Positions 6,490 to 60,316 of a stretch of 64,000 nucleotides of DNA are shown here, in pieces. A program made the position numbers and the translations under genes. Below the pieces are notes generated by a model. That model worked only from the letters and a program-made list of their open reading frames with translations. It was not told the DNA's origin and did not search any database. Source of the stretch: an uncultured bacterium (GTDB lineage Bacteria > Patescibacteriota > Minisyncoccia > UBA6257 > 2-01-FULL-56-20); the NCBI GenBank assembly GCA_963844965.1, contig CAWJQC010000004.1, positions 152,489-216,488 of the forward strand. The letters run 5' to 3'. Positions within the stretch are counted from its first letter, which is position 1. Each line of letters starts with the position of its first letter.

Positions 6490-7836
6490 GACTAACAAAA
6501 AGGGGCATCGTATCCCCATGCTCCGCCGCATTGAGCGGGGCGAGGCGCAGGGTATCATCTGTTGGAAACTAGATCGAGTGGCACGCAATATGCAGGACGG
6601 CGGAAAGACCATTGAACTCCTTAAACAAGGAGTGATCCAACATATTCGTGCCTTCGCAAGCAGTTACTATCCGCAAGACAACGTGCTCCTCATGTGCATA
6701 GAGTTCGGCATAGCTGACCAATATGTTCGCGATTTAAGTGCTAACACTTCGCGCGGATTGAGATACAAAGCAAGCTTGGGTATCTACCCCGGCCTCGCCC
6801 CGTTCGGATATATAAACGATCCACAGACCAAGACCGTTATCGTAAACCGCAAGAACGCAAAGCTCGTCAAAAAAACTTTTGAGATTTACGCGACGGGCAA
6901 AGTCCGCCTTGAAAATCTTGCCGATCTTTGGGAGAAGGCGGGCGTCATGTCTAAAGGCAACCGTCGCGTCCATATTTCAAGAATGTCTTTCATTCTGCAA
7001 AATCCTTTCTACTACGGACACTTTCGTTATTGCGGCGAGATACACGAAGGCAAGCATGAGCCAATCATTACGAAAGACCTCTACGATAAAGCGAACGCTG
7101 TCCTGCGAAGCCGAGGCCGTGTGCCGGACATTAAGAACGACCCAAGCCCTTACTGCGGCCTCCTGCGGTGCGGCGAGTGCGGTATGGGTATTACGGCCGA
7201 GGACAAGACAAAGCACCAAAAGAACGGCAACGTCCACCACTACGTTTATTACCGTTGTACCCGCAAATCGAAGACGCACAAGTGCCACGAAGCACCCGTG
7301 CGGAGCGAGATACTGGATCGGCAGTTGTCGGCTCTTATCGCCGACTACGCCATGCCCAAAGAGTGGGTAGCCCCTTTGTCGGCTATGCTCGACCAAGAGG
7401 CCATAAACGCCAAACAGACGGCGTCGGTGGCCGTTCAAGAGTTGCGGGAGCAGGTGCAAGACCTTACCCGCGACCTCGCCAGACTTACCGATGTCTATGT
7501 TGCACAAGACATAGAGCGAGATGACTACCTTGAGAGGCGTCGTTCGCTCATGTCGGAAAAGAAGTCCGTCGAGGAGCAAATAGCCCGTCTTGAACGAACC
7601 CCCTCCGCGTGGATTGAACCTGCCCGAAGTTGGATTCGGGACGCTTCAATACTGGACGAAACAGCAAAAAACTTCGACCTCCCCTCCAAAAAACTCTCCC
7701 TCCAAAAAATCTTCGGATTGAACCTCTTTCTTAAAAACCGTCGTATCGAATTTAACCCCATCAAACCTTACGCTTCGCTCCGCGAAGCGCGCGTAAATTT
7801 TTCTGAAACTGACTTACCTTTGAAACTGGAGCGGGT
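6488..7836 (+). pseudogene. Large serine recombinase, 5'-truncated. It lacks the catalytic N-terminal ~65 aa including the YxRxST serine.
   Basis: It aligns with the intact paralog at 18647-20251 from MLRRIERGEAQGIICWKLDRVARN (=MLALIEKGEAQGILCWKLDRLARN) onward. It retains the recombinase domain, the zinc ribbon (CGxCG…YYRC) and the coiled coil. An upstream in-frame stop lies at 6434-6436. Confidence 0.75.
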
Positions 7837-7905
7837 AACGGGAATCGAACCCGTGTGTCAACCTTGGCTCCGTCACCATAAGAAGGACTGCTTGCTTTTT
7901 CCGTG
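7837..7905 (-). other. tRNA 3'-half-like remnant (T-arm, acceptor 3' strand and CCA). Probable att-site remnant or pseudo-tRNA.
   Basis: The minus-strand sense reads …ACGGGTTCGATTCCCGTTACCCGCTCCA. No complementary 5' acceptor strand (GCGGGTA) was found. It is similar to the 3' half of tRNA-Gly at 20163-20236. Confidence 0.45.
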
Positions 7906-7909
7906 AGTG

Positions 7910-8248
7910 TATTTACAACACCGCTTGGACTTATTTTAACAAAAAACTCTGACTTTGGCGAGGCCGGAAGGGGTCGTTGAGGGGGTCGTTCCAGAACGAC
8001 TACCTTTTGAATTGAAAATACTCGGCGAGCACTGGCTTCTCTGCCTCTCGCGGAGTTTTTTCTTACCCCCGACAATACCTCCTTTGAGGAGGTTGAAGGT
8101 TGCCCCTTCGCCCCTCGCCTGCTGGCTCGGGGCTCGGGGCTTATATTGTTGTGGGCTGGATGCGCTAATTTTCCTCGGCTCCGCTCTCCTTGGCCGAGTT
8201 GAAAAACACGAACCGCAGTTGATGCGCGCGGGTGGGAGAGAAACTTTG
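7910..8248. repeat. Left copy of an ~340-bp imperfect inverted repeat (partner at 13150-13505)
   Basis: Hand alignment with the reverse complement of 13150-13505 gives roughly 80-90% identity. Example: gtgtatttacaacaccgcttggacttattttaac…ggtcgttgagggggtcgttccagaacgactacc…cctcggctccgctctccttggccgagttgaaaaa. Confidence 0.8.
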
Positions 8249-8312
8249 AGCCAAGGAGGAGCGGAGGCCTCGGAAAATCGGCCTCTTACTGATATAATGA
8301 ATATATAATGCT

Positions 8313-9185
8313 ATGCCGAAACATACCAGCAAAAAATTTGTCAGAAGCCCAGACAATGGCGGCCGATTGCGCATCCAGCCCAGCGACGTCGCGCTCCTCC
8401 GCGATTTGTCGGAATATCGTTTCCTGAACACCGAGCAGGTTTTGGCCCTGCACCACCGAGGTTTGCGCAACCTCCAACGCCGCTTGCACGATTTGTACCA
8501 CGCGGGGTATCTTGAACGCCCTCCCCAGCAGAACATCTCCGCTCTGCCGAAAGGTCATATCGTTTACGGCTTGGGGGCGAAGGGTGCGGAGCTTCTTTAT
8601 GAAAATCGGGAGGAGCGCGCCGAAAAACTCCGGCAAGTGAAGCTGAACCGCGAGACAACGTTTCCCTACATCGCCCACGCTTTGATGATTTCCCAGTTCC
8701 GCGCGGCCTTGACACTGGCGGCGGAAAAAACCGGAGGGAAGATGAAAGTTGCGAGATGGCGACAGGGCTTTGAATTGAAAAACTATTTGAAGCTCCGCGG
8801 CGGAACTCCCGAACTCATGCCGGACGCGTTTTTCGCGATTGAACAGGGCGACAGACGCTGGAACTTGTTTTTGGAAACCGACCGCTCCACGATGACACTT
8901 GACCGGTTTTTGGTAAAGCTCAAAACATACTGGAAATGGTGGTGGGAGGAAAAATACAAAGAACAGCTCGGCATCTCGCACTTCCGCGTGCTTACCATAA
9001 CCATTTCCGAAGAACGGAAGGAGAACCTTCTCCGCGTCGCCAAAAACGCCGACCCGAGAAGGCAAGGGAGCAACATGTTTTTGTTTATTTCCGAAAAAGA
9101 GTTTTCGCTGAAGAAGCCGGAGGCGGTGTTGTCTCCGGTGTGGCTTTCGCCGAGAGACGGATTGAAACATTCGTTTCTTGAATAA
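8313..9185 (+). CDS. Replication-relaxation (Replic_Relax) family protein
   Basis: N-terminal VALLRDLSEYRFLNTEQVLALHH pattern and ~290 aa, typical of PF13814 proteins from plasmids and integrative elements. Confidence 0.55.
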   Translation: MPKHTSKKFVRSPDNGGRLRIQPSDVALLRDLSEYRFLNTEQVLALHHRGLRNLQRRLHDLYHAGYLERPPQQNISALPKGHIVYGLGAKGAELLYENREERAEKLRQVKLNRETTFPYIAHALMISQFRAALTLAAEKTGGKMKVARWRQGFELKNYLKLRGGTPELMPDAFFAIEQGDRRWNLFLETDRSTMTLDRFLVKLKTYWKWWWEEKYKEQLGISHFRVLTITISEERKENLLRVAKNADPRRQGSNMFLFISEKEFSLKKPEAVLSPVWLSPRDGLKHSFLE

Positions 9186-9245
9186 ATTAGCGGCGGCCAC
9201 GAGGTCGAAGCGGCCGCCAGTTTTTTAAAAAGTTCCCTATACTTT

Positions 9246-10004
9246 ATGCCGCATACGCCGACGACAACGACAATAATCGTGGGCGCGCTCATGGTCATCG
9301 CCACCGCGCTTTTTTGCGTCGCGGCTTATTTTGTCATCAAATACGCGCTCCGCTTCGTCGGAAAAATGTTCAGCTTCGTAAACGAGGTGGCAAACATCGT
9401 CAGGGAAAGGAAAGACCGGTATCTTGTTGGGCCGGTTTGGGGATGGGACATACAAGACCGGATAGAAGAATGGGACAAGCCGGACGAGGAGTGGTCGGTT
9501 ATGGTCGAAGGAGCGGCGGGATACGGCGAAGAATTTTTGGAGCGCGTCGCTCGCCGCGCGCTTGACGAAAACATTCCCCGGCTTGTGGTGAGAAAGCGGA
9601 TTGTCTGGCCGTATCTGCGCCGAAAATGGCAACCGGTTCTTGTGATAACCAACAAGAAAATAAAGGGCTATCAAATGCTGATTGACGCGACAGACTACAC
9701 CGACCGCCTTGATGTTTGGTGGCGAGTTGATAAAGGCGACCGCGACCAACTGCCCTTGAGAGGGGCGGAAATACGGGAAAAGAGATTCGGGCTCGATTCG
9801 TCGGGCGTTCTTGAAGCCCAAGCCCAACAAGAGAAAAACTGGGTATTTCCCGAACAGATGACCGCTCTCGACAAGCAGGAGTGGGACAACTGCACTGGTT
9901 TGGTGCGCGATATTGTCAGAGCCGAGGTAAAACGGATGGCGGACGAAGTTCGTATCGGCGGCGGCGTGGCTGGCGGCGCGAAGGGATTTATTGACATCAA
10001 CTAA
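9246..10004 (+). CDS. Membrane-anchored hypothetical protein
   Basis: 252-aa ORF with a single N-terminal TM (IIVGALMVIATALFCVAAYFVI). Confidence 0.45.
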   Translation: MPHTPTTTTIIVGALMVIATALFCVAAYFVIKYALRFVGKMFSFVNEVANIVRERKDRYLVGPVWGWDIQDRIEEWDKPDEEWSVMVEGAAGYGEEFLERVARRALDENIPRLVVRKRIVWPYLRRKWQPVLVITNKKIKGYQMLIDATDYTDRLDVWWRVDKGDRDQLPLRGAEIREKRFGLDSSGVLEAQAQQEKNWVFPEQMTALDKQEWDNCTGLVRDIVRAEVKRMADEVRIGGGVAGGAKGFIDIN

Positions 10005-11583
10005 CTATGAAAAACGGATTTTTAAAAACAATTTTGGACTGGATACTGGACTGGCGTTATCCGCTCCCGCCCCCGCCGGAGCCGGACTTGCCTCTTTTTC
10101 CGAGCAGTCGGAGGAACCGATGGCGGACAAATTCAAACTGCCGAGGCCCAACGAGCTTGTTCTCGGCAGTACGACAACCAAAGGGCCGGACGGCAAGGCA
10201 GAAGGCAAGACAAAGGGCGTGTCGCAGGACGACCGCTCGACCCATTTTTACGTGGTGGGAGCGACCGGCACGGGCAAGACGAAATTTTTGGAAACCCTAA
10301 TCTTGCAGGACGCGATGAACGCGCACGGCTTTGGCATCGTGGACGCGCAGGGCGATTTGACGGAAGACATCAAGAGCTATCTTTTCATTCTTACCTTCCC
10401 AAACGAACCGGAGGAAACCGCCGAATTTGAAAAAGATTCGGAAAAAGCCCTCAAAAAAATTAAAAGATTTTTGAGCGAACGCGTCGTGCTGATAGACCCG
10501 TCCGACAGGGAAAGAACTGTTTGCTTTAATCCGCTTGAAAAAGTGGAGGGGCTTTCGCCCGCCGGAATCGCGAGCGAAGCAGTGGAGGCGTTCAAGAAAA
10601 TCTGGCATGACGCTTGGGGCGCGAGAATGGAAGACCTGCTCAAAAATTCTCTGATAGCCCTCGTCGAGAACGACCTCACCCTCGCCGAACTTCCCCTGTT
10701 TCTTTCCGACATCGGGGCGAGAAAAAAGATTCTGAAAAAAGTCATCCATCCCGTCTGCCGCCAGTATTTTGAAAAGTTCAATTCTTTGAGGTCGTCGTTG
10801 CAGGACGAGTGGGCGGAATCAACTCTGAACAAGGCCCGCGCCTTCATGTCCAACGACCACGTGCGGCAGATGCTCTCGGCGGTTAAAAGCACTTTCAACT
10901 TCCGCGACATAATGGACGACCGGAAAATTCTGCTGGTGAAGCTGAATCGCGGAAAATTGAAGGGCGACGCCGACCTGCTCGGCTCTTTGCTTCTCTCCAA
11001 AATCCAGATGGCCGCCTTTTCTCGGACGGACGTTCCGCAATCCGAACGCGTGCCGTTTTATCTTTACATCGATGAGTTTCAGAATTTTGCGACCGAGAGT
11101 TTTATCCAAACGCTCGCCGAAGCGAGAAAGTATGGCCTGTCGATTACGCTGGCTCATCAGAATCTCGCCCAGCTACCGCCGTCCCTGCGGGCGTCGATAC
11201 TCTCCAACTGCGGCTTGCAGGCGTACTTCCGCATCTCGCGCGACGACGCGAACATGCTAGCTAGGGAATCTCTCGCTTCCGTTTACGAAGAGCCGCCCGG
11301 CTGGGAGTTTTACGTCCGCTCGCTTCAAGAACTGCCGAGGCGCGAGTGCGTGATAAAACATAAAATCGCGGGAGGCGTGATTGCCGTCCACACCATCGGA
11401 CTGCCTACCCCTTGGGAATGGGCGAAGATGGACGAAAAGAAATTCTCGGAGGGACTGGCCGCGATGAATACCGGCGGCGCGTACATGCGCAAGCGCGAGG
11501 ACATAGAGAAAGAATATCGGTCGAGGCAAGAGGCCCTCCGATTTATGGACGAGCCGGAGAGTTTCTGGGAGCGGAAGGTTTAA
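9991..11583 (+). CDS. TraG/VirD4/TraD-like (TrwB-type) conjugative coupling ATPase
   Basis: P-loop VVGATGTGKT. Walker-B-like LYIDEFQNF. C-terminal ~500 aa typical of type IV coupling proteins. Confidence 0.6.
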   Translation: MTSTNYEKRIFKNNFGLDTGLALSAPAPAGAGLASFSEQSEEPMADKFKLPRPNELVLGSTTTKGPDGKAEGKTKGVSQDDRSTHFYVVGATGTGKTKFLETLILQDAMNAHGFGIVDAQGDLTEDIKSYLFILTFPNEPEETAEFEKDSEKALKKIKRFLSERVVLIDPSDRERTVCFNPLEKVEGLSPAGIASEAVEAFKKIWHDAWGARMEDLLKNSLIALVENDLTLAELPLFLSDIGARKKILKKVIHPVCRQYFEKFNSLRSSLQDEWAESTLNKARAFMSNDHVRQMLSAVKSTFNFRDIMDDRKILLVKLNRGKLKGDADLLGSLLLSKIQMAAFSRTDVPQSERVPFYLYIDEFQNFATESFIQTLAEARKYGLSITLAHQNLAQLPPSLRASILSNCGLQAYFRISRDDANMLARESLASVYEEPPGWEFYVRSLQELPRRECVIKHKIAGGVIAVHTIGLPTPWEWAKMDEKKFSEGLAAMNTGGAYMRKREDIEKEYRSRQEALRFMDEPESFWERKV

Positions 11584-11892
11584 CCGCGCCTATTTGACAA
11601 ACCGGACTTGAAAATGGTATCTTCTCCCCAGTTTCATTACCCCCGCCGTCCGCGCTAAAGCGGTGCGGCGGGAAAGCGGAACGCGAGGGAGATCGCGCTC
11701 TCGCCCGTTCCCTTGGATGGCTCCTCCTCGAACCGCCGAGAAGAAGGAATGAAACTTTTTCATAATAAAGAGTACAATAAAAGGACGTCACGGGACGTCC
11801 TTTTATTTTTTTGAACTGGAACATCTCGCAACCGAAATAGAGCCGCTCGGCAAAACCACCTTCCACGAGAAGGGCGTTTTATTCGGCATCAG

Positions 11893-13109
11893 GCCCAAAG
11901 ACCGCCGCCATCATATGTACGTTATCGGGCAGACCGGCACCGGCAAGTCCACGCTCTTGAAGAATATGGTGATACAGGACTTGCGGTTCGGCCACGGGGT
12001 GCGCGGTCATTGATCCCCACGGCGAACTGGTGGAAGACATTTTGAACTTCGTGCCGCGCTCGCCGCACGAACGAGGTCGTGTATTTCAATCCGGCGGACA
12101 CGGAAAACCCCATCGGCTTGAATATCCTTGAAGCCCGCGACGAGAACGAAAAACAGCTCGTCGCTTCGTCGCTCATCTCGGTATTCAAGCATTTGTGGAA
12201 AGGGTTTTGGGGTCCGCGGCTTGAGCACGTTTTCCATAACGCCATACTTGCTTTGATGGACACGCCGGGCAGTACCTTGCTCGGCATTTACCGGATGCTC
12301 GCGGACGACGAATACCGGCAGCAAGTCGTCGGCGCAGGTCAAAGACCCCGTCGTGAGATTGTTTTGGAAGGAGGATTTTGAGAAGTATCCGCCGCAACTT
12401 CAAAAAAGAAGTCGCCTCGCCGATTCAGAACAAAATCGGCCAGCTTCTCACGAGCACGCCCTTGCGAAACATCGTCGGCCAGTCCCGGAGCACGATTGAT
12501 CTGCGCTTCATTATGGACAACCAGAGAATTTTCCTTGTGAACCTCGCCAAAGGCACGGATCGGCGAGGACAAGGCAAATCTGCTCGGCTCGGTGCTCGTT
12601 ACGAAGCTGTACCTTGCCGCGCTTGAACGGCAGGACATGCCGGAGGAGGAACGCAAGGATTTTTATCTGTACATTGACGAGTTTCAGAACTTCTCCACGG
12701 ACGTTTTCCCGTCTATCTTGTCGGAAGCCAGAAAATATCGGCTTGAACCTCATTCTCGCCCATCAATATCTTATATCAGCTTTCGGAGAGCGTGAAGCAC
12801 TCGGTTTTCGGCAACGTCGGCACGCTCGCGTCTTTTCGCGTCGGAAGCATCGACGCGCGCGAACTGGCCGAGGAGTTCAGCCCGACTTTCACCAAAGAAG
12901 ACCTGGAACACACCGAAAACTATCACGCCTACCTCAAGCTGATGATAGACGGGAAGCGATCCACTCCTTTTTCCGCCGAAACGCTCCCGCCTCTCGCCCA
13001 TCAGGGCGACGAGGCGCAGAAAGAAACGCTCATTAGAGTTTCACGGGAGCGTTTCGCGTCAAAGCGAGAGGACATGACGGAGAAAATCGAAAAATGGTTT
13101 TCAAAGTAA
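11893..13109 (+). pseudogene. Degraded paralog of the coupling ATPase, with multiple frameshifts and stops
   Basis: P-loop HHMYVIGQTGTGKSTLLKNM, YLYIDEFQNFSTDVF and C-terminal homology are spread over at least 4 frames (ORFs 12079.., 12378.., 12592.., 12792..). Confidence 0.7.
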
Positions 13110-13149
13110 ACCATTTTTCATGTTTTTTTTCCTCGGCCTTGCGGCCTGA

Positions 13150-13505
13150 GCGGATTTTCTTTTTTTGTTTTCCTTCCCACCCGCGCGTAGAATACGATTC
13201 GGTTTTTTCAACTCGGCCAAGGAGAGCGGAGCCGAGGAAATACGCTAGAGACAGCCCAGCATACAATAGTAAGTCCCGAGCCCCGAGCAGCAGCGAGGGG
13301 CGAAGGGGCAAACCTTCACCCTCCCAAAAGGAGGTATTGTCGGGGGTGTCGAAAGGTCCGAGGCGGAGCGAAGAAGCCAATATCAGCGGAGTAATTTCAA
13401 TTCACGGGGTAGTCGTTCTGGAACGACCCCCTCAACGACTCCTTCGGGCCTCGCCAAAGTCAGAGATTTTGGTTAAAATAAGTCCAAGCGGTGTTGTAAA
13501 TACAC
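13150..13505. repeat. Right copy of the ~340-bp imperfect inverted repeat (partner at 7910-8248)
   Basis: See 7910-8248. Confidence 0.8.
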
Positions 13506-13665
13506 TCCATAACACAACTTAAAGGTTTTTTATTCACCGAACAATGGGCTTCCACAATGGAAGCCCATTGTTTTTCCGCAAAACCGCGCGCTTCGCGCGC
13601 GTGGAGTGTCAGGTTCAATCCGAAAATTTTTTGAGCGAACGATTTTTTGAGGGGTAAGGGGGTCG
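13506..13665 (-). repeat. Perfect inverted duplicate (~160 bp) of the 3' end of the recombinase gene at 20007-20167
   Basis: The reverse complement of 13506-13665 equals 20007-20167 base-for-base in the segments compared. These include the 13+3+13 palindrome caatgggcttcca-nnn-tggaagcccattg and the gcgcgc-ttcg-cgcgcg hairpin. It is a remnant 3' end of a recombinase gene pointing toward the inverted repeat. Confidence 0.85.
13537..13573 (+). terminator. Rho-independent terminator-like hairpin (caatgggcttccacaatggaagcccattg + TTTTTCC)
   Basis: Perfect 13-bp stem followed by a T5 run on the plus strand. The same element on the minus strand at 20099-20135 can terminate tRNA-Gly transcription. Confidence 0.5.
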
Positions 13666-13756
13666 CAGATAAAGATATAATGCTTGCCCCGCCCTTCCCG
13701 TGCGCGCATTATGTATTTTTGCCGATTTTGAAATCGGCAACTCCCTTATAACGATT

Positions 13757-16462
13757 TTACCTTTTCAGACCATATTTCTGTTCTCGTTTCTGGAAAGCTT
13801 CTGTGCCGCCCTCAAGAACGTCATAGATTGTCTTCCGCATCTCTATATTCTCTAACGAACCTTGTAGGGCATTAACCTTACTTTTATCATCAACGGATAA
13901 AGCAGTTATCAATTCTGAATCGCCCAAGACAACGATATTGGCGTTATGGGTGCAAATAATTATCTGCCTGTTCACTTTTTGCTCTCTAACCAAAGTTACT
14001 ACCTTCTCTGCTACGAATTTTGCGTCAAGGTGATCCTCCGGCTGGTCAATGATAAGTGGATGGTCGCCAGACAACAATATAAGTTCCACCAAAGTGCCGC
14101 ATCGCTCGCCGAACGACATACTATCTTTGCCGAGTATTTTAGTTCCATATTTAATGTGATTTTCTCCGGTTTCCGCATATTCATCTAGCCGCATTATTAG
14201 GTCTTCTCTAATAATTTGAGTATTCGGGTCTTCAAAAAACCACCGCAGAGTTTCTGTCTTTCCGCTACTATCTTGTAATTTTGGTATTCTATTTTCTTTA
14301 ATAGTGGAAATTATCTTTTCCCTTGCGACATCACCAGTAGCTTTGCCGACAAGTTCGTTTATTACATCTTTAACGTAATCCTCTCTGACGGGAGATTTTA
14401 TCTTAAAATTCTTTTCAATGACACCCTTTAACTCGTCGTTTGATTGGAGGAACTGCTCCTTTATCCACGGAGCAATATCACCACTTGGATCGTCCCATAC
14501 GGCAGTGATTGTTGTATCCTTAAAAGATTCGTTGAACCCGCCAATAAGTTTTTGGTTTTCCTTTATCCAGAGTTTTAGTTTTGCCGCCAGTTGATTCACG
14601 AGTTGGCTGTGTTGTTTCTTATCGCCTTCAAACTTTTTTAGGCGATTTTCAAGTTGCGATGATTGCTGGTCAATAAACTTAATTCTGTTGTTTCGCTTTT
14701 CTACCTCACTCTTTGTTATAGTAACGCCGTTTAGCTTACAGTAATCGGTAAACTGCTTTGTAAGTTCTGCGCTTTCTCTATCCAGTTCTTTTTTTACATC
14801 GGATTCTCTTACTTCCTTTACTGCTCCTTCTAAATTCTTAACTACGGAATCCAGTTGAGATTCTTTTAGGTTATAAAAATCTTCAATTTTTTTCTTTAGC
14901 GCATTTTTCTCCGCAAAAAGTTCTAAAACTTTATCTTTATCAACAGTAGTAGAAAGTTTAAGTTGCCCTGCGAATTTTTTAATGAGGACGGCTTGGGCTT
15001 CAATATCTTGGATCAAGCCATCAATCAACTGGCGTTTGGCTCTATTGCTTTTAATTTTTTCGGCAAGGTCTTTATATTCTTTTGTTTTTAACTTCTTAAA
15101 GTAAGATTCAATTTGTTCTCGTTCCGCTTCAAGTTTCTTTTTGTCTATTTCTACTTGGAGTTTATCGGCGTAACTGTTACGGGTAGTTTCCATTTCTACA
15201 GCCAACGCCTCTATTTCCTCTTTTGTCTTAATGAGTAGATCGGAATGAAGACGGCCTCCTATGTAATCCGCTATCTGTTTTGGGCTATCGGCTTTTTTCT
15301 CAATTTCTCCTTGTGTCCAGTATTCAACTTGAAAGGACGAAGTATAAAATGGGTCATTCCACTCTTTGACTTGACGCTTTAGAGATACTGGGTCTTCTGC
15401 TCCACTTTGAAAGATAACCTCAACTTCAAGATTGGGGAACTCCCTACTCAAAAATTCAATTAAGGAAAGTTTTTTGTCGCCTTTATCGGATGAAAACTTG
15501 TTAGCTACATATCCAATCAATTCTGCTAAAGCGGTCTTTCCGGCGGCTCGTGGCCCGATAACCGTGGTTAAATTCGGACTAAAAAACAGTTCTTGATTTA
15601 GAGTAATTGGTGGAAATATACTTCTCTTTGATTGATAACTTTGATGATTTAGCAATTTTGCGGATACAATCTGCGGATGAAGATAAAGTGGCGGACTATC
15701 ATCAAGACAAACTCTAATAACTGGCTCATAAATAATTTGTTTCAAACCTTCAAATGTTGGATCGGCCTTAATCCAACTATACTTCTTACCAATTACTTCC
15801 GTTGAGTGGCCGCTTTTGTATTGAAGTTTTGATCTATCGCAAGCGTCGGAAGTAATAATACACGGAAACTCCTGTTTAATCTTTGGGAACACTATTTTTC
15901 TGTAATCCTCAACCTGTTTTATGGCCGATACTTCAAAAATATCAACCAAAAACGCTAAATCTTTTTTTAGTGTCGCACGGACATCACTATCCAATTGTTC
16001 TATCCCGTTGGACTTGTTACCCGCGTGGAGTAAAACAAGCCCGTCTAACTCGTGTATTTTTTGACACGCGTCTTCAAAGTTACAGTAAATCTCCTTATCC
16101 CCCTTACCCTTAATATCGTTTTCCGAAAAATTAAGAGGGCAGAGTAATTTATCGTAAATAGTTTTTGAAGTAGTGGAAGAATCAAAAACTCCGATAATAT
16201 GTATCCCTTTATTGCCCTTATCGGTGCGCAGTTCAACGCCGGGGAGAATTGTTATATCTTTTCCTTTAGCAGCTTTTAGAACCTCGTCAATTCCTTTAAC
16301 GGTATGGTGGTCTGTAATAGCAATAACAGATATATTTTCTGTTATTGCCTTTTTCACTATGTCTTCCGCTTTGTCTTTACAGCCACTATCCCAATCATAA
16401 GAAGACGGGGTATGAACGTGCAAATCCCACTTTCTCCAAATTGAACCGCGGGGTGAATTCAT
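13757..16462 (-). CDS. PHP-family phosphoesterase fused to an SMC/Rad50/SbcC-like ABC ATPase with a long coiled-coil insertion. Putative nuclease-ATPase.
   Basis: 901 aa. N-terminal PHP motifs WDLHVHTPSSYD, ITDHH, LLHAGN, ITSDACD. Walker A GPRAAGKT at ~aa 300. ~350-aa Lys/Glu-rich coiled coil. Walker B LIIDQPEDHLD and H-loop ICTHNANI at the C-terminus. 6 bp from the methyltransferase gene. Confidence 0.7.
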   Translation of the reverse strand: MNSPRGSIWRKWDLHVHTPSSYDWDSGCKDKAEDIVKKAITENISVIAITDHHTVKGIDEVLKAAKGKDITILPGVELRTDKGNKGIHIIGVFDSSTTSKTIYDKLLCPLNFSENDIKGKGDKEIYCNFEDACQKIHELDGLVLLHAGNKSNGIEQLDSDVRATLKKDLAFLVDIFEVSAIKQVEDYRKIVFPKIKQEFPCIITSDACDRSKLQYKSGHSTEVIGKKYSWIKADPTFEGLKQIIYEPVIRVCLDDSPPLYLHPQIVSAKLLNHQSYQSKRSIFPPITLNQELFFSPNLTTVIGPRAAGKTALAELIGYVANKFSSDKGDKKLSLIEFLSREFPNLEVEVIFQSGAEDPVSLKRQVKEWNDPFYTSSFQVEYWTQGEIEKKADSPKQIADYIGGRLHSDLLIKTKEEIEALAVEMETTRNSYADKLQVEIDKKKLEAEREQIESYFKKLKTKEYKDLAEKIKSNRAKRQLIDGLIQDIEAQAVLIKKFAGQLKLSTTVDKDKVLELFAEKNALKKKIEDFYNLKESQLDSVVKNLEGAVKEVRESDVKKELDRESAELTKQFTDYCKLNGVTITKSEVEKRNNRIKFIDQQSSQLENRLKKFEGDKKQHSQLVNQLAAKLKLWIKENQKLIGGFNESFKDTTITAVWDDPSGDIAPWIKEQFLQSNDELKGVIEKNFKIKSPVREDYVKDVINELVGKATGDVAREKIISTIKENRIPKLQDSSGKTETLRWFFEDPNTQIIREDLIMRLDEYAETGENHIKYGTKILGKDSMSFGERCGTLVELILLSGDHPLIIDQPEDHLDAKFVAEKVVTLVREQKVNRQIIICTHNANIVVLGDSELITALSVDDKSKVNALQGSLENIEMRKTIYDVLEGGTEAFQKREQKYGLKR

Positions 16463-16468
16463 AAATTA

Positions 16469-17584
16469 TTACCTTTGTTTCAAAAACTCGTACTCAATCT
16501 TTGAAAATAAATTACTGGGTAAGTTAGACAATCTTTTTTTAGCAACCTTGATGGCCTGTTCTGATTTATCAATACCAATCCAATGTCGGCCAAGCTCTTG
16601 GGCGGCAACGAGGGTTGTCCCAGAGCCGCAAAAACAATCAAGAACTAAATCGTCTTTATTTGACGAAGCTTCAATAATAAACTTTAACAAGTCCAAACTT
16701 TTTTCTGTTGGATAATTGGGATACTGCGGGTCTTTAAATTCCCAAATATCCTGCATTTTCTTCCCTGTTCTCTCATCGAGGAAAATTTTTTTGCGTGGTA
16801 CTCCGCTTGCCGACCATTCAATAAGTCCTTGCTTATCCCATTCTTCTAAAATAGCCGGATTAGTTCGCCAATGGCGTCCTTTTGGTGGTTTTTGCCCTCG
16901 CCACTCCTTACTTGTATTCCCGTTTGATGTTTCTCCGGGTGCGTGGAGTGGGATTGTTGTATATCGCCGTCCGTCTTTATCAACTTTCTTAAACAAGCGA
17001 TCCTCGTCTTCCTCGGAGAATGAAACGTGTGGATCATTCCAAATCGGGTTTTCTGATTTGGAGTAAAAAAGTATCAAATCCTTGATATTGCCGTAGGCCT
17101 TACGATGAAAATTTTTCGGGTTACACTTAATGCGAGTAATATCGTTACGAAAACTTTTGCGACCAAAAACTTCATCCATTATAAGTTTCACATAGTGGCC
17201 GATTTTATAATCAATGTGAAGGTAAATTGACCCACGCTCGGATAGAAGTTCGCGCAAAAAAATCAGGCGTTCGCGTAGAAATTCTAAAAATTCCGCACCA
17301 ATTAACGTATCGCTATATGCAATCTCATCGCTATTGCTACTACTGATTGTATTGGCACGCCCCTCGCTTATTTTGAAATGGCCATTGGTTGCAAATGGTG
17401 GATCAATATAAATCAAATCAACCTTACCCCCATAATTATCAAGTAACGTTTTGAGAGTGGAAAGATTATCGCCATGAACAAGTTTATTTTTTGCCCCTTT
17501 GCCGGAAAGCACTTTCAAGTTAGCTCTTGGAGTGCTTTCAAGAATTTCACGCTCACCCTTTTTGCTTTCATAACTAAGAAGCAT
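16469..17584 (-). CDS. Site-specific DNA methyltransferase (N6-adenine/N4-cytosine, β-class permuted: DPPF then FCGSGTT)
   Basis: Motif IV IYIDPPF precedes motif I DCFCGSGTTLVAA. ParB-nuclease-free Mod/PvuII-like architecture. Confidence 0.8.
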   Translation of the reverse strand: MLLSYESKKGEREILESTPRANLKVLSGKGAKNKLVHGDNLSTLKTLLDNYGGKVDLIYIDPPFATNGHFKISEGRANTISSSNSDEIAYSDTLIGAEFLEFLRERLIFLRELLSERGSIYLHIDYKIGHYVKLIMDEVFGRKSFRNDITRIKCNPKNFHRKAYGNIKDLILFYSKSENPIWNDPHVSFSEEDEDRLFKKVDKDGRRYTTIPLHAPGETSNGNTSKEWRGQKPPKGRHWRTNPAILEEWDKQGLIEWSASGVPRKKIFLDERTGKKMQDIWEFKDPQYPNYPTEKSLDLLKFIIEASSNKDDLVLDCFCGSGTTLVAAQELGRHWIGIDKSEQAIKVAKKRLSNLPSNLFSKIEYEFLKQR

Positions 17585-17590
17585 ATAAAA

Positions 17591-18373
17591 TTATATTTGA
17601 TATAAGAATTCGCGCAGGACGAGTGCGCTCATAATATTCTCGTCCTTTAACTCGCCAGCGACCGCTTTATACATTTTGTTGTTGCCCTTGATATAAAGTA
17701 CCCCATCTAAAATGGCCACCTTAACCGCTTTAACACCCTTCGCTTTGATAGTGGCGATTGCGTCGTTAAATTGAGCATTTTGATGACCCCCAAAATCGGT
17801 TAAAAATTTTGCCTCTCCAATAACATACTTCCCGTTAAAACGCCCTATCAAATCAAGTCCTTTGTTATGATTGTAGTTCAAGTATTTTTTAGCAAAGGCC
17901 ATCGTTTCCGCATCTCCCGCATCAAGAACTGCGTTTCCTTTTGCCACTAAAAATTCCGACATCTTCAGCGGTTGCACTCCGAGAGTTTTTCTATTCAGCC
18001 AGCGGCGGAAAAGTGGGCCAATTTGTCGGTTTGTTTCTTTTGGCTCTGATGAACGAGAGAAAATTTGCTTAAGACCCATCTCATACAATCGGCCACATAG
18101 ACGAGCAACCGTCGCCGGATTGCGCTTTAATGCTTCTTTGTCGCGCTTAAGATAAGCAATGTAGGAATCTTTAATAGGAAATAAATCAAGCTTCAAAAGA
18201 TTTTCAAGAAGCGCAACATTGTTCCTTTTTTCAAACGCCTGTTCTACGTTTTTCCAAAGCGCCTTGTTAATGTCGCGAATTCCCTCTGGAATTGTTGGAT
18301 ATACTTGAAACAAATCATCGAGGTAGCTTCGCTGATTTGCGTAATCAATACTTAATTTTGTCCAATGGTTCAT
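17591..18373 (-). CDS. Putative Type II restriction endonuclease with a PD-(D/E)xK core (LDLIG…GEAKF)
   Basis: 260-aa ORF between the C-protein and methyltransferase genes, with 4-6 bp intergenic gaps. D…ExK motif GLDLIGRFNGKYVIGEAKFLTD. Confidence 0.6.
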   Translation of the reverse strand: MNHWTKLSIDYANQRSYLDDLFQVYPTIPEGIRDINKALWKNVEQAFEKRNNVALLENLLKLDLFPIKDSYIAYLKRDKEALKRNPATVARLCGRLYEMGLKQIFSRSSEPKETNRQIGPLFRRWLNRKTLGVQPLKMSEFLVAKGNAVLDAGDAETMAFAKKYLNYNHNKGLDLIGRFNGKYVIGEAKFLTDFGGHQNAQFNDAIATIKAKGVKAVKVAILDGVLYIKGNNKMYKAVAGELKDENIMSALVLREFLYQI

Positions 18374-18377
18374 GGTT

Positions 18378-18590
18378 TTATTTTATTAAGTCATCAACTG
18401 CGACATTTAGGGCTTTGGCTATTTTCGCCAAAGTTTCTATTGTCGGATTCTTATTAACACCCGATTCAATTTTAATCATGGTGTTATAGGTAACATCCGC
18501 CAATTTGGACAAACGATCTTGTGAAATGCCGAGTTTACTACGGTATTTTTTGATATTCTCGGCAATCCTTGATTTGTTGCTTGCTCCCAT
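18378..18590 (-). CDS. Controller (C) protein, XRE-family HTH regulator of the R-M operon
   Basis: 70 aa with an HTH (KLGISQDRLSKLADVTYNTMIKIESG). First gene of the C-R-M operon. Confidence 0.75.
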   Translation of the reverse strand: MGASNKSRIAENIKKYRSKLGISQDRLSKLADVTYNTMIKIESGVNKNPTIETLAKIAKALNVAVDDLIK

Positions 18591-18650
18591 AGTAATATAG
18601 TAGTATGATTGAACTAATAGCGAGTGATTTTGTTTAATCTATTACTATGG
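18587..18650. promoter_or_regulatory. Symmetric divergent control region. A 10-bp perfect inverted repeat (ccatagtaat … attactatgg) contains both start codons (C gene and recombinase); it is a candidate C-box/operator.
   Basis: 18587-18596 ccatagtaat and 18641-18650 attactatgg, separated by a 44-bp AT-rich spacer. Confidence 0.45.
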
Positions 18651-20251
18651 TATCAAAAAATACACCGCACGTAAATACCTATTTTCTCTACGCCCGCAAA
18701 TCCACCGACGTTGAAGACAAGCAAGTCCGGTCTATTGAGGACCAGCTTGCCGTATTGCGGGCGTTGGCCAAAGGCGAAGGACTAACTATCGCCAGAGAGT
18801 TTATTGAGCGGCAATCGGCCAAGAAGCCGGGCCGCCCCGCTTTTAACGAAATGCTCGCCTTGATTGAAAAAGGCGAAGCGCAAGGAATCCTCTGTTGGAA
18901 ACTTGACCGCTTGGCTCGCAATCCGGTTGATAGCGGCCGCATATCTTGGCTCTTACAGCAGGGCGTTATCCGGCACATCCAAACGCACGACCGAAGCTTT
19001 TATCCTACGGACAATGTTTTGATGACGAGCGTAGAGTTCGGGATGGCGAACCAGTTTATCCTTGATTTGAAAGTGAACACCAAACGCGGCCTTGACGCCA
19101 AAGCCAAGCGCGGCGACTATCCGGGCCATGCTCCCATCGGCTACATCAACGACACCCGCGTAAAGCTCGTGGCCGTTGATAAAAGGAAATCCAAAATTAT
19201 CAGGCGCGCGTTTGAACTCTACGCCGAGGGCAACTGGCGTTTGGAAGACGCCGCCAAATTCCTTTTGGAGAACGGTATTAAAACGAAAGGCGACAAACCC
19301 TTGTCGCGCGACCGAATCTCTTATCTCTTGACCAATCCTTTTTATTACGGCAATTTCCGCTACAACGGGGAACTTTACGAAGGCAATCACGAGCCGATAA
19401 TTACGAAGCAACTTTTTGACAAAGTTCAGGCGGCGTTGAAAGCGCGAAGCAAGCCGCCCTCAAGTCCCGCCAATCACCCGCAAGCTCTTTGCGGGGCTAT
19501 CCGGTGCGGCACTTGCGGCATGATGATAACCGCCGAGCGTAAGATAAAACACCAGAAAAACGGCAATGTCCACGAATACACTTATTATCGTTGTACCCGC
19601 AAGAACAAAGCGATCCGGTGCTCCGAGCCGCCTATCCGCGAGGACGCGCTTAATCGGCAGTTATCGAACCTTATCAAAAAGTATGCTTTGCCGGACGATT
19701 GGGCGGCGGAGCTATTAAAAATGTCCGAGCGGGACGAACAGGAAGCCGCCCAATCAACGACCGCCCTCGTCCGAGAGGCGCGGGACGAGATACAGGCCAT
19801 TTCTCAAAAACTCCAACGCCTTCTTGACGCATATCTTGACCAAGATATTGAGCGGGAAAGCTACCGCTTCGAGAAGGCAAACCTTCTCTCCCGCAAGAAG
19901 TCGTTGGAGGAGAAAATCGGCAATTTGGAGCAAGGGGCGATTGCTTGGGTTGAACCCCTGCGCGATTGGATAAAAGACGCTCAAACGCTGAACGAAATGA
20001 CGGAAACGACCCCCTTACCCCTCAAAAAATCGTTCGCTCAAAAAATTTTCGGATTGAACCTGACACTCCACGCGCGCGAAGCGCGCGGTTTTGCGGAAAA
20101 ACAATGGGCTTCCATTGTGGAAGCCCATTGTTCGGTGAATAAAAAACCTTTAAGTTGTGTTATGGAGCGGGCGAAGGGAATCGAACCCTCGTCTATAGCT
20201 TGGGAAGCTATCGTACTGCCACTGTACTACGCCCGCAAGATAGCCCACTAA
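18647..20251 (+). CDS. Large serine recombinase (resolvase catalytic domain, recombinase domain, zinc ribbon, coiled coil). Intact.
   Basis: 534 aa. N-terminal YARKSTDVEDKQVRSIEDQ…GLTIAREFIERQSAKK…PAFNEMLALIEKGEAQGILCWKLDRLARN. Zinc ribbon CGAIRCGTCGMM…YYRCTRK. Confidence 0.85.
   Translation: MVSKNTPHVNTYFLYARKSTDVEDKQVRSIEDQLAVLRALAKGEGLTIAREFIERQSAKKPGRPAFNEMLALIEKGEAQGILCWKLDRLARNPVDSGRISWLLQQGVIRHIQTHDRSFYPTDNVLMTSVEFGMANQFILDLKVNTKRGLDAKAKRGDYPGHAPIGYINDTRVKLVAVDKRKSKIIRRAFELYAEGNWRLEDAAKFLLENGIKTKGDKPLSRDRISYLLTNPFYYGNFRYNGELYEGNHEPIITKQLFDKVQAALKARSKPPSSPANHPQALCGAIRCGTCGMMITAERKIKHQKNGNVHEYTYYRCTRKNKAIRCSEPPIREDALNRQLSNLIKKYALPDDWAAELLKMSERDEQEAAQSTTALVREARDEIQAISQKLQRLLDAYLDQDIERESYRFEKANLLSRKKSLEEKIGNLEQGAIAWVEPLRDWIKDAQTLNEMTETTPLPLKKSFAQKIFGLNLTLHAREARGFAEKQWASIVEAHCSVNKKPLSCVMERAKGIEPSSIAWEAIVLPLYYARKIAH
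20163..20236 (-). tRNA. tRNA-Gly (anticodon CCC)
   Basis: Reverse complement GCGGGCGTAGTACAGTGGCAGTACGATAGCTTCCCAAGCTATAGACGAGGGTTCGATTCCCTTCGCCCGCTCCA. 7-bp acceptor stem, D-arm GTAC/GTAC, anticodon loop TTCCCAA, T-loop TTCGATT, encoded CCA. It lies antisense inside the recombinase 3' coding end. Confidence 0.85.
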
Positions 20252-20357
20252 GTCCTTCTTTGGTGCGGGGCTTGGGAAGGTCTCGCCTGCATACCGGCAG
20301 GCAGGTTCTGCCACTGAACCATACCCGCGTTTTTTGTTACATGCTACATGTTACATG

Positions 20358-47829: not shown

Positions 47830-50223
47830 CCTTATTACGTCATGGAACTGGTGCGCGGCATCAAAATCACGGATTACTGTGACCAGAACAATCTTTCCAC
47901 GCGGGAACGGCTGGACCTGTTCATTCAAGTTTGCCAGGCCATCCAGCACGCGCACCAGAAAGGCGTCATCCATCGCGACATCAAGCCGTCGAATATCCTC
48001 GTCACTGTGAACGACGGCGTGCCCGTGCCCAAGGTCATTGACTTCGGCATCGCCAGGGCGACACAGGGACGGCTCACCGACAAAACTTTGTTCACCGCGT
48101 TCGAGCAATTCATCGGCACACCCGCCTACATGAGTCCCGAACAGGCGGTATTGACCAGTCTGGACATTGATACGCGCAGCGACATCTACAGCCTGGGCGT
48201 TCTGCTCTATGAATTGCTCACCGGCAAAACCCCCTTCGATGCGAATACCTTGCTTCAATCCGGGCTGGACTCGATGCGCCGCACGATTCGGGAAGTTGAA
48301 CCGCCGAAACCTTCAGCGCGGTTGAGCACGATGCTGGATGCCGAACGGGCGACCACGGCCAGCCACCGCCAGACGGAACCGCCCAAACTGATTCATCTGG
48401 TTCGCGGAGACCTGGACTGGATCGTGATGAAGTGCCTGGAGAAGGACCGCGGGCGGCGCTACGAGACGGCGAACGCCGTGGCGATGGACCTCCGGCGGCA
48501 TTTGAGTTGCGAACCGGTGCTCGCTTGTCCGCCCAGCCGGCTTTATGAGTTTCAAAAGACGGTCCGCCGCCACAAATTCGGCTTCGCGGCGGCGGCGGCA
48601 CTCATCACAGTGCTCGCGATCGGCGTGCTGGTGAGCTGGTCGGAAATGATACGGTCGCGGCGCGCGGAGCGGGAGCAAGCGCGTCTGCGCCAGCAAGCCC
48701 AGACCGAAGCGGCCAAGAGCCAGCAGGTGGCGCAGTTCCTCAAGGACATGCTCAACGGCGTCGGACCGAGCGTGGCGTTGGGTCGCGACACGACAATGCT
48801 GCGGGAGATTCTGGACAAGACCGCCGAGCGGGTGGGTAAAGACTTGAAAGACCAGCCGGATGTGGAAGCCAATCTGTGGAACACTCTCGGCGACGTTTAC
48901 TTGGATCTCGGCGAATATCAGAAAGCGGAAGCGATGCAGCGCGCGGGGTTGGCGATACGAATGAAACTGTTCGGCCACGAGAATTTGTACGTCGCCGTGT
49001 CGCTCTGGGGCTTGGCCGACGCGCTTCGGCGCAAAGGCAGCTTTGCCGAGTCGGAAACTTTGCTTCGTGATTCGCTAACGATTTTTAGAAAGCTGCGCGG
49101 TGATGAGAATCGGGACGTGGCCGCAGAGCTCTCCATGCTGGCCGACGTGCTCCGCTATGAAGGCAAGCTGGACGAGGCGGAGCCGATGCAACGGCAGGCG
49201 TTGTCCCTGAACAGGAAACTGTTCGGCAACAAAGATATAATGGTGGGTATTTCACTCAACAACCTGGCGCTGGTGCTCCGGTGGCAGGGCAAGTTCTCTG
49301 AAGCGGAAACGATGTTTCGCGAAGCGCTGGCGATATACAAAAAAGTGTTGGGCGACGAGGATCCAGAGATCGCCATTACCCTCGACAATCTGGCCAACGT
49401 GCTCCTCGACCAAGGCAGACTGACCGAGGCCGAAGCCACGTGTCGAGAGACGTTGGCAATGCGGAGAAAACTGCTGGGCAACGATCATCCAAAGGTGGCC
49501 GAGTCACTCAACAAACTGGCTTGGGTGCTTCAAAGGCAAGGCAAGCTGGCTGAAGCGGAAACGATGGTTCGCGAGGCGCTGGCGATGCTAAGAAAGTCGC
49601 AGGCCCGTGAGACTCCTGAGGCAGCCGACTTGCTCGGCAACCTGGCTTACCTTCTCCAAAGTGAGGGTAAGCTGAATGAGGCCGAAACCATGCAGCGCGA
49701 GGCGTTGATGATACAGAGAAGATTGCAGGGTGACGAGGGCCTGCGGGTGGGCGATTCGCTCGCCCAACTGACAGCCATCCTGCTTGACGAAAACAAATTT
49801 TCAGACGCCGAGCCGCCGGCTCGCGAGTGTCTGACCATAAGAGAGAAGATGATTCCTGATCTCTGGTGGACTTTCAACAGTCGTAGCCTGCTGGGCGGCA
49901 GTCTCCTGGGGCAGAAGAAATACGCGGAGGCCGAGCCGTTGCTCCTCTCCGGCTATGAGGGCATGAAACAACGCGAGGACAGGATTCCAGCGTATGGCAA
50001 GTTTCAACTGAAAAAGGCCCTTCAGCGCCTGGTGCAACTCTACGAAGCCACGGACCGACCCGATCAAGCCGCCCAATGGAAGCAGAAGCTGGCGGAGTTC
50101 GACAAGGCCGAAACCGGGAAGAAGGCCGACGCGCCCCAATCGCAGGCTGACGCCATCACTCCCGTCCTTCTGCCTGAAGCCAAAGCGCTGATCGAAGGTG
50201 AGGGCGCAGTCACCAGAAAGTAG
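47830..50223 (+). CDS. Ser/Thr protein kinase with the N-terminal lobe missing (starts at subdomain V), followed by a TM segment and a long TPR-repeat domain
   Basis: [15 protein letters not shown], catalytic loop [47 protein letters not shown], then at least 8 TPR-like repeats. Confidence 0.8.
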
Positions 50224-50558
50224 CGCAGGCGAGACTTGCCATGTTCAACATTCCGTCCGCCCTTCTTCAGACCCGGGCCGCTTCTTAAAAAAATCCTTCA
50301 TTTACCGCTTGATTTCGCGTCAATGGGCGTCCGTTCGTGATTCGAACTTCCCTCTGCAAATTAATTTGCGCCTTTGGCCCCGGAATTCCGCATTGGCTAA
50401 CGGTGGGCCAATCAGCTCACCCATTGAAAACGAAAAATTGCTGAAAAGGCACAATTATGAATGGCCTGAACCCTTCCCGAAAGCCGGCAGCCGTTCGGCA
50501 CGCCGGTGGTTACCTGTTCCTGCTGGCCGGTTTCCATCTTAGTCACATTCACAGGACA

Positions 50559-51701: not shown

Positions 51702-51978
51702 AACACGACGAGCCGGTCAAGCGATATGATTTTCCCCGAGTGGAAAGGATGCGGGTCAAATGGAGATCGGTTGTCGCCGGAGCGGGCTGCGCCACCCTTT
51801 GCCTGTCCGCCCGGCCATCGCTGGCCGATGAACAGATGTTCGGCTTCACGCGCGGAAACATGAGCTGCGACCTCGCTGGCAAGAGTTTGACTTCCTTGTC
51901 ACAGACGCGGGAGGCCAGCGGTCAACAGCATAGTAGAACCAAATAATATAAGGAATATAAGAATAAAAACCTGAACCT

Positions 51979-54853: not shown

Positions 54854-54859
54854 TCTTTC

Positions 54860-60285: not shown

Positions 60286-60316
60286 CGTTCATTTCTGCAA
60301 GTTCAAAACCTGATAT

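Follow-up and report, generated by a model that had tools for sequence, protein, structure and literature searches.

The 64,000-nt window analysed here, a stretch of contig CAWJQC010000004.1 from an uncultured patescibacterium (positions are counted from its first letter), carries a gene for a large serine recombinase (LSR) whose open reading frame (ORF) runs antisense through an entire tRNA-Gly(CCC) gene and stops 15 nt past the 5' end of the tRNA. The reading that we favour, with a probability of about 0.75, is that this LSR inserted its own 12.3-kb element at the 3' tip of the tRNA gene. The element would in all likelihood extend from 7905 to 20167, the overlap between the LSR and the tRNA marking its right end. 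The coordinates of all features are collected in Table 1.

By its domains and fold, the window protein is a bona fide LSR. A resolvase-type catalytic domain (PF00239, E 2.3e-20) was found together with the Recombinase and zinc-ribbon domains (PF07508 and PF13408), and the residues R17-K18-S19, the region of the serine nucleophile, are invariant in an alignment of 56 homologs. The AlphaFold2 model of a relative, P0003 (mean predicted local distance difference test score, pLDDT, 88.8), has two long helices (342–390 and 395–422) after the zinc ribbon and resembles the serine integrases of SPbeta, phiC31, Bxb1 and LI; its best Foldseek matches were full-length serine integrase complexes (E 9e-23). 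No Pfam match to Phage_integrase, the tyrosine recombinase domain, was obtained for the LSR or the other scanned ORFs of the element, and the LSR reached no equivalog cut-off in NCBIfam. It was at most 30% identical to any enzyme in plasmid and phage collections, and since IMG/VR held no relative above 34% identity, there is no link to phages. The database relatives of the LSR numbered 4297 (matches at E <= 1e-20), 574 family loci were confirmed among GTDB species genomes, and the named family records were nearly all from Patescibacteria, the candidate phyla radiation (CPR).

The antisense course of the LSR through the whole tRNA had been stated in a preliminary description of this DNA, and it was borne out when the ORF was compared with the tRNA called by ARAGORN. 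Rfam agreed with that call (RF00005, 70.5 bits at 20166–20236), and the acceptor stem of the tRNA is self-consistent. The final 28 codons of the LSR, those beyond 20167, are antisense tRNA sequence. We compared 80 loci from GTDB species genomes, 69 of them with a complete 3' end. Among these 69, ARAGORN found an antisense overlap with a tRNA or transfer-messenger RNA (tmRNA) gene in 61 and Rfam added one tmRNA. With 62 of the 69 homologous loci overlapping a t(m)RNA gene in the same way, the overlap characterises the family and is far from a chance event. The targets in the 80 loci comprise 15 tRNA isotypes (two also intron-bearing) and tmRNA, and the distance from the KIFGSN motif of the recombinases to the tRNA 3' end is constant at 104 nt. 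The C-termini of the homologs mostly resemble an antisense T-arm, G-[IFVL]-E-P. The length of the tRNA-encoded tail is unconserved, with stop codons ranging from 64 nt short of the tRNA 5' end to 133 nt past it, and the tail peptide itself may be functionless. Recombinases 80–88% identical to one another occupy different tRNA genes, e.g. tRNA-Gly(UCC) and tRNA-Val(CAC) at 88% identity; target switching among tRNAs is therefore frequent. Some members are sited at tmRNA genes (L005:11508–11901 and L006:4335–4723; Rfam tmRNA, 115 bits), and others at tRNA genes with introns in the anticodon loop (L033:11551–11776, L015, L017, L019 and L038). The intron of L033 is a group I intron by Rfam, and the introns called by ARAGORN were 178–560 nt long, in tRNAs labelled Arg(GCG) or Thr(UGU).

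The window contains a perfect inverted copy of the 161 recombinase nucleotides that precede the presumed crossover. On its own strand, this left copy (IRL) runs in frame into CIYNTAWTYFNQNL (13504–13460), an example of the conserved tail xLYxxARTYFxxN that forms the native end of 14 of the 120 best database homologs and, in the AlphaFold model of P0003, the last confidently predicted helix (residues 494–512). The tail DNA is present in a third copy at 7905–8228 (+), inverted relative to that at 13182–13507. Three junctions could thus be aligned: J1 reads ccgt-GAG-TGTATTTAC (7905), J2 reads tatg-GAG-TGTATTTAC (reverse complement of 13505) and J3 reads tatg-GAG-CGGGCG (20165). The preliminary description had placed an integration into the tRNA 3' end with a crossover at the CCA end, between TGGA and G of a shared motif. 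The alignment supported integration and an exchange at the CCA end and discriminator, and reduced the sequence common to the three junctions to GAG, opposite tRNA positions 74–72. On this sequence evidence, J3 is taken as P-core-B' (attR), J1 as B-core-P' (attL), and J2 as an inverted, unrecombined, attP-like P-core-P' site. The element is defined by the repeat, the in-frame tail cassette and the left junction at 7905, which place its putative attP inside the recombinase ORF.

This anatomy is conserved. The layout with three junctions and a common core of 3–5 nt was found in nine loci (the window and eight with enough flanking sequence), and an inverted repeat copy of at least 100 nt, 84–100% identical, in 57 loci, whose outer flanks showed the in-frame tail motif in 47 distinct cases. 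In all loci, the identity of the repeat copy to the tRNA junction ends 2–6 nt into the tRNA. No second copy of tRNA-Gly(CCC) beyond 5 nt was found as a direct repeat at the element's distal end. A unit like an insertion sequence, bounded by the 161-nt repeats alone, was rejected: the conserved tail is external to the left repeat, and the insert in two relatives (L042 and L080) extends to J1. We also abandoned the rule that the element always supplies the CCA end, which is true in the window, since the P arm of several relatives ends in TTG or other bases where the window has TGG. A GC-rich palindrome, CGCGCGCGAAGCGCGCG, at 20064–20090 with a twin within 13582–13608, encodes HAREARG; it is kept in the 'LTLHAREARG' subfamily and absent from the 'LFLKNRRIEF' subfamily.

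The following route of integration is proposed. The P arm of attP would be the last ~25+ nt of the conserved coding sequence and the P' arm would encode the native last ~14 residues of the enzyme, with the crossover in GAG. In attB, B' would be the acceptor and T-arm of the tRNA and B whatever DNA lies downstream. Recombination of attP with attB, a chemistry that we infer from the junctions, would i) join the body of the recombinase to antisense tRNA sequence, which would give the observed overlap and a junk C-terminus, ii) shift the native tail to the far left end (7905), iii) leave the tRNA intact, and iv) place a conserved hairpin and T-rich tract, both within the recombinase coding sequence, directly downstream of the tRNA. 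Excision would restore the native tail. The predicted join of the empty attB is ...GCTTGCTTTTTCCGT-GAG-CGGGCGAAGGGAATCG, and that of the circular junction ...AGTTGTGTTATG-GAG-TGTATTTAC...TTTTAACAAAAAACTC, with the 7905-type tail variant.

Insertion between adjacent tRNA genes was seen directly in two relatives. The left junction is 12 nt upstream of tRNA-Ala(CGC) in L042 and 7 nt upstream of it in L080, the right junction falls at the 3' end of tRNA-Val(CAC), and the cargo in between is unrelated; these loci are clean insertions between neighbouring tRNA genes in two different organisms. The L081 contig, which has no tRNA, carries a recombinase with the native tail, the tail arm, Replic_Relax and TraD genes, and then an inverted copy of tail plus repeat, an order that we read as the unrecombined junction of a related element. 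Two further loci fit none of the family's standard layout. In L073 (5200–8270), a native-tail recombinase is followed ~2.6 kb downstream by a directly oriented, partial 3' end of a recombinase that is fused to tRNA-Ile. In L045 (4290–4560), a full tRNA-Val(UAC) is followed after 105 nt by a partial tRNA-Val(UAC), which extends from the anticodon arm to CCA, has stems differing from those of the full copy and is fused to the recombinase.

The two arms that exchange partners share a motif at different distances from the core. Counted from the end of identity, the T-loop sequence TCRAR begins at 13 nt in the tRNA arm and T(C/A)GAAC at 17 nt in the tail arm; this TNGAAC-type motif is offset by +4 in the tail relative to the tRNA arm in 30 of 31 loci. 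The codons for A-R-T supply the motif in the tail; they are GCT (33/33), NGA (41/47) and ACC (31/44), against backgrounds of 21%, 32% and 31%, respectively. This skewed codon use indicates that the tail DNA is constrained both as protein and as site. It is probable that the tRNA is recognised through the universal T-loop sequence (TCGAAC in antisense), and the zinc-ribbon domain would be the part that contacts the TNGAAC-type motif. For the Listeria LI integrase (Rutherford et al. 2013, PMC3783163), the distance of the zinc-ribbon-domain (ZD) motif from the centre is 5 bp shorter in attB than in attP, and the offset between tail and tRNA arm fits this rule for attP and attB half-sites. The junction cores vary with tRNA positions 73 and 72, being GAG at tRNA-Gly, GTG at tRNA-Val, tRNA-Leu and tRNA-Lys, TGGCT at tRNA-Gln and TGGCA at tRNA-Trp.

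A hairpin followed by a T-run, read by the recombinase on one strand, had been described as the terminator of the tRNA on the other. The hairpin lies in the codons for QWASIVEAH, is followed by TTTTTCC on the tRNA strand, and has a twin at 13540–13572. Over 36 homologous loci, it occupies a fixed position of +38 to +62 nt from the tRNA end with differing sequences. Pairing was retained in 83% of cells, as against 27–52% with the partner slid, and the covariation score was 0.37 as against at most 0.16; none of 500 shuffles reached the observed value. In 24 of the 36 loci, the hairpin is succeeded on the tRNA strand by a T-rich tract. The best reading of the hairpin at 20100–20132, which a simple terminator scan did not flag, is that it would likely be the terminator of the tRNA. 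Since its flanks on the recombinase strand are A-rich, the hairpin would not stop the recombinase mRNA.

Several observations weigh against integration as we describe it. 1) The empty attB and the circular junction of the window element were not found, scans of Joint Genome Institute (JGI) metagenomes giving 0 matches for these and 0 for the host locus. 2) Exact-protein look-ups of the recombinase and of the flanking host gene found neither on record. 3) The evidence is all comparative, and most loci are on short-read contigs of metagenome-assembled genomes (MAGs), in which repeats can be mis-joined; two records titled 'chromosome: 1' (L038 and L050) show the same layout. 4) The motif shift is 4 nt here as against 5 bp in the LI integrase. 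5) L081 can be read equally well as a tandem of two elements, and as proof of a free circle it was for this reason rejected. 6) The gene content of the left segment (S1) is not conserved across loci, which limits the term 'mobilizable' to the window element. 7) A simple integrating circle needs no second, inverted attP, so that the model is incomplete.

This second, inverted and unrecombined attP copy (13182–13665) divides the element into two segments, and a spare site of the J2 type is nearly universal in the family. It might be a second integration site, allow flipping in the free form as in the 2-micron plasmid, or give rise to an antisense RNA to the 3' end of the recombinase. Its presence is what an alternative based on inversion would explain. 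This alternative could coexist with integration. In one form, the recombinase or RecA would flip the 6.3-kb segment 13666–20006 through the 161-nt repeats and so exchange the junk for the native tail and back; in another, the free circle would flip-flop between the inverted attP copies in the manner of the 2-micron plasmid. Both forms are possible and, in our view, rather unlikely. The repeat is perfect over 161 nt while T and T' are 78–90% identical, which suggests ongoing homogenisation, and of 43 diverged repeat pairs, 35 match fully over the 30 nt beside the core. The spare cassette keeps its tail in frame and intact at the 47 distinct flanks, the two tail copies of L080 differ by 4 substitutions, all synonymous, and the native tail is found at the end of database homologs, as mentioned above. 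Against this, none of ~60 integrated loci was flipped, i.e. had a native-tail recombinase and a bare repeat beside the tRNA; the tail copies of the nine loci taken together show 7 synonymous and 5 non-synonymous codon differences, a ratio without clear independent purifying selection; and the native-tail proteins are on short contigs ending in the repeat, which could be free forms or mis-joins. Nor is recombination of attP with attP or attR known for serine integrases (PMC3783163).

Taken jointly with integration, the observations would allow a wider and equally tentative reading, in which the enzyme is a self-rewiring integrase with attP in its own last helix, its C-terminus being changed to junk by integration and back to the native form by excision. 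Such an exchange might, just as doubtfully, switch activity or direction independently of a recombination directionality factor, with convergent transcription from the tRNA silencing the integrated copy; the spare attP might, at no greater likelihood, permit 2-micron-like flipping or restoration of the native enzyme. That the family would then be the first large natural set of serine integrases with a generic attB at the tRNA 3' end, read through the T-loop, is to be held as loosely. The spare cassette as an independent small gene was rejected as a general explanation, since an in-frame ATG is present in only 7 of 46 loci, although ORFs of 60–170 aa were called there. These calls, of which public protein sets hold many (proteins P0121–P0179), consist of the C-terminal ~53 aa of the recombinase and the native tail, often start with MRARxGxGK..., which is the conserved non-coding motif read on the opposite strand, and are probably not real genes in most loci.

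A second recombinase sequence lies to the left of J1. The preliminary description had taken it as a truncated paralog followed by a 69-nt tRNA remnant at 7837–7905, and both as the outcome of serial integration. The homology of the paralog to aa 69–519 of the LSR extends collinearly from 6518 to 7867 at 49% identity, and the copy runs out, in the same frame, into TGGAG and tRNA-like sequence, a fusion typical of the family; it is a decayed older family member. The tRNA-like piece is also real, but it is 42 nt long and lies at 7827–7868. ARAGORN, run with or without introns, and Rfam called no complete tRNA there, which disposes of an intron-containing or otherwise unusual complete tRNA, a possibility raised earlier as fatal to the remnant. 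In the serial explanation, two related elements would have entered the same tRNA attB successively and the 42-nt piece would be the displaced 3' part of that tRNA. The two paralogous recombinases do share their orientation and their frame relative to the TGGAG end, and tandem or neighbouring remnants exist elsewhere (the partial tRNA-Val of L045 and the partial recombinase fused to tRNA-Ile of L073). We nevertheless consider this course improbable. The remnant differs from tRNA-Gly(CCC) in its anticodon (GCC), acceptor stem (TACCCGC as against CGCCCGC in the intact tRNA) and anticodon stem, with 78% identity over 41 nt; it ends at the anticodon, not at the crossover; and 36 nt of unrelated DNA separate it from J1. 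Since the remnant comes from a different tRNA, breaks at the anticodon and is followed by this gap, it is not a piece displaced from tRNA-Gly(CCC), and a crossover at the CCA end displaces no tRNA sequence in any case. Repeated use of the CCA end would have fused the 3' end of the paralog to the incoming tail arm; such a fusion is not seen, and serial integration is thus unsupported.

The remnant seems to belong to a different rearrangement. A 5' fragment 68 nt upstream of tRNA-Gly(CCC), at 20304–20328, has an acceptor strand that complements TACCCGC of the remnant at 7/7 positions, and together the fragments suggest that an older tRNA-Gly(GCC) was split. With integration at tRNA-Gly(CCC) as proposed above, the spacer at 7869–7904 would be the B arm of attL, i.e. 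the DNA that lay downstream of the tRNA before insertion. The fragment read from 20328 to 20304 continues into a degenerate tRNA-like stretch ending in GCCCCGCACCA (to 20261). An inverted repeat of 15/16 nt, CACCA(T)AAGAAGGACT (7874–7889 and 20251–20265), brackets the tRNA and the element.

A mechanism like that of tyrosine integrases, in which the element brings a replacement tRNA 3' part, the crossover falls in the anticodon or T loop and the present tRNA is a hybrid of host and element, is very improbable. Islands that target tRNA genes reportedly carry such a replacement as a rule, with the crossover within the tRNA, and the remnant beside the paralog does break at the anticodon. However, the identity between repeat copy and tRNA that ends 2–6 nt into the tRNA in all loci, the three junctions in nine loci, the lack of a direct repeat of the tRNA at the distal end, the self-consistent acceptor stem and the nature of the enzyme, a serine and not a tyrosine recombinase, all contradict it. 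That the overlap is an accident of the ORF or an annotation artefact without a biological link between recombinase and tRNA, as the variable length of a tail set by the tRNA sequence might suggest, can practically be dismissed, given that 62 of 69 loci, with 15 tRNA isotypes and tmRNA, agree in overlap, spacing and frame.

Table 1. Positions of the recombinase, its proposed attachment sites and the neighbouring features in the window
Feature	Position	Strand	Basis and remarks
5'-truncated recombinase pseudogene (element A remnant)	6518-7826	+	Without ~68 N-terminal residues including the catalytic Ser
tRNA-Gly(GCC)-like 3' fragment, 42 nt	7827-7868	-	tRNA positions 76 back to 34; ends at GCC anticodon
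Non-tRNA spacer, 36 nt	7869-7904		Junction comparison
J1 (putative attL), core GAG (7905-7907) and tail arm T	7905-8228	+	Tail codons 7905-7952, ECIYNTAWTYFNKKL*; left end of element
Segment S1	8229-13181		Genes 8313-11583 (+); Pfam, NCBIfam
Replic_Relax protein	8313-9185	+	In S1
Hypothetical protein	9246-10004	+	In S1
VirD4/TraD-like coupling protein	9991-11583	+	In S1
T', inverted copy of tail arm (putative P' arm; tail codons and beyond)	13182-13507	-	Inverted repeats with 7905-8228, 78-90%
J2, core GAG and native tail cassette	13460-13507	-	In frame from IRL: ...SCVME-CIYNTAWTYFNQNL*
IRL, inverted copy of last 161 nt of recombinase before crossover	13505-13665	-	tblastn, aa 455-507, 100%
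Structured non-coding motif	13666-13745		Just inside IRL; no Rfam match
Segment S2	13666-20006		Cargo 13757-18590 (-) and recombinase
TrlF-family AAA-like ATPase with PHP domain, 900 aa	13757-16462	-	NF045780, 469 bits; weaker match to anti-phage Ppl
N4/N6 type II methyltransferase	16469-17584	-	In S2
Tsp45I-family restriction enzyme	17591-18373	-	PF06300, E 1e-120
Control-protein-like helix-turn-helix (HTH) protein	18378-18590	-	In S2; divergent from recombinase
LSR, 534 aa	18647-20251	+	ORF; Pfam Resolvase, Recombinase, Zn_ribbon_recom
IRR, right arm of perfect 161-nt inverted repeat	20007-20167	+	Repeat search, 100% complementary; recombinase aa 454-507; putative P arm and hairpin
Conserved hairpin in recombinase coding sequence	20100-20132	-	15-bp arms 20100-20114/20118-20132; 31-63 nt downstream of tRNA 3' end
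tRNA-Gly(CCC), intact	20163-20236	-	ARAGORN, sole tRNA called in window; putative B' arm of attR
J3 (putative attR), core GAG	20165-20167		Last bases common to recombinase-side repeat and tRNA (positions 74-72)
tRNA 5' fragment, GCGGGTA and D arm	20304-20328	-	68 nt upstream of tRNA-Gly(CCC)

The genes between 13757 and 18590 form a defence cluster, in which the methyltransferase and the restriction enzyme make up a Tsp45I-type restriction-modification system, and the relatives L081–L084 have other restriction-modification or defence cargo. The GC content falls to 0.38–0.43 in S2; farther along the window, it climbs from about 0.50 to 0.57–0.61 at 48001–64000, i.e. from ~48 kb onward. A small HTH gene divergent from the recombinase is present in the window and in L081–L084, and no candidate for a recombination directionality factor was identified. 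The genes for Replic_Relax and the VirD4/TraD-like ATPase occur in the window and L081 and are missing from most other family members. Since only 3 other loci shared the S1 genes of the window in a conservation check across loci, S1 was rejected as a conserved component of the family and is regarded as variable cargo. No genes of a type IV secretion system (T4SS) are present in the window element. The element would be integrative and, from its gene content, possibly mobilizable, the latter term applying to the window element only.

The structured motif just inside IRL consists of a covarying stem of 5–7 bp around a nearly invariant C-rich loop, CTTGCCCC[A/G]CCC..CCCGTGCGCG, and continues with a second covarying hairpin and then ACTCCC. 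Compensatory changes were found at 11 of 11 predicted pairs (23 loci), and 22 other loci have the motif just inside their left repeat copy, among them L007:226–300 and L029:4012–4087. It could be a non-coding RNA, a hairpin resembling an origin of transfer (oriT) or nick site, or a protein-binding site.

In domain set and predicted fold, the window LSR resembles the known large serine recombinases (phiC31, Bxb1, A118/LI, SPbeta SprA, CcrAB and TnpX/TndX). With serine integrases the family also shares the very short junction core (3–5 nt in nine loci), the absence of long identity between sites, and the placing of one motif at different distances from the centre in attP-type and attB-type half-sites. 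Unlike the known LSRs, it targets the 3' ends of tRNA and tmRNA genes, has its proposed attP inside the recombinase ORF together with a conserved second, inverted copy, and possesses an additional conserved domain at the C-terminus, whose last part is the swapped helix. The use of t(m)RNA genes by serine integrases 'has not been reported previously' according to Mageeney et al. (2020, PMC7192596), whose TIGER/Islander survey had 14 such cases out of 297, uncertain and needing proof. The closest functional analogues for an attP within the integrase ORF are the 'suicidal' tyrosine integrases of the archaeal SSV type, which also have attP in the integrase ORF, a tRNA target and a gene altered by integration (PMC7253208). 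The SSV enzymes are tyrosine recombinases and their gene is split into two separated parts, whereas in the window family the exchange would be limited to the last ~14 codons of an ORF that remains long and open, and a spare 3' end is kept.

The tRNA islands with tyrosine integrases (Islander/TIGER islands and tycheposons) are similar in their site-specific insertion into t(m)RNA genes with preservation of the tRNA, in their defence cargo, and in having the integrase gene at the tRNA-proximal end. The window family differs in its serine recombinase, in having no displaced tRNA fragment as a direct repeat, in a crossover at positions 72–74 rather than in the anticodon or T loop, and in an integrase that reads into the tRNA on the opposite strand. 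As in the yeast 2-micron plasmid with Flp-FRT, two long inverted repeats with the recombinase site would split the presumed circle, and the recombinase gene abuts one of them. The likeness to 2-micron, Hin and Gin is an analogy of layout only. Inversion was observed in none of the ~60 integrated loci. Hin and Gin are small serine invertases with sites of ~26 bp, and Flp belongs to the tyrosine recombinases. Full-text literature searches found no description of this LSR family or of its layout, so a tRNA-end-targeting LSR family in the ultra-small CPR bacteria is apparently undescribed.

The repeats of these elements also bear on genome assembly. Contigs end ~50 nt outside the left repeat copy in L007, L012, L016 and L071 (copy at 51–65), and ~136 nt outside it in L014, L018, L049, L053, L054, L058, L064 and L068 (137–153). 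Both distances are about 5 less than the assembler k-mer, so the junction core is where the assembly graph forks. The repetition of the tail arm suffices to account for these contig ends. Contigs of CPR MAGs are broken systematically by the elements, whose repeats explain why many of them end at such loci.

Serine integrases have been thought to avoid tRNA genes, whereas for this family the 3' end of any tRNA or tmRNA gene is a target. This raises the question of how a serine integrase reads a tRNA gene, with a T-loop motif and a core that varies with the discriminator and position 72, as well as the questions of why attP is placed in the enzyme's own ORF and what the conserved second, inverted attP does. 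Such enzymes could be integrases with ready-made landing sites in almost any genome, and the elements that they define appear to be a main vehicle of defence genes in CPR bacteria.

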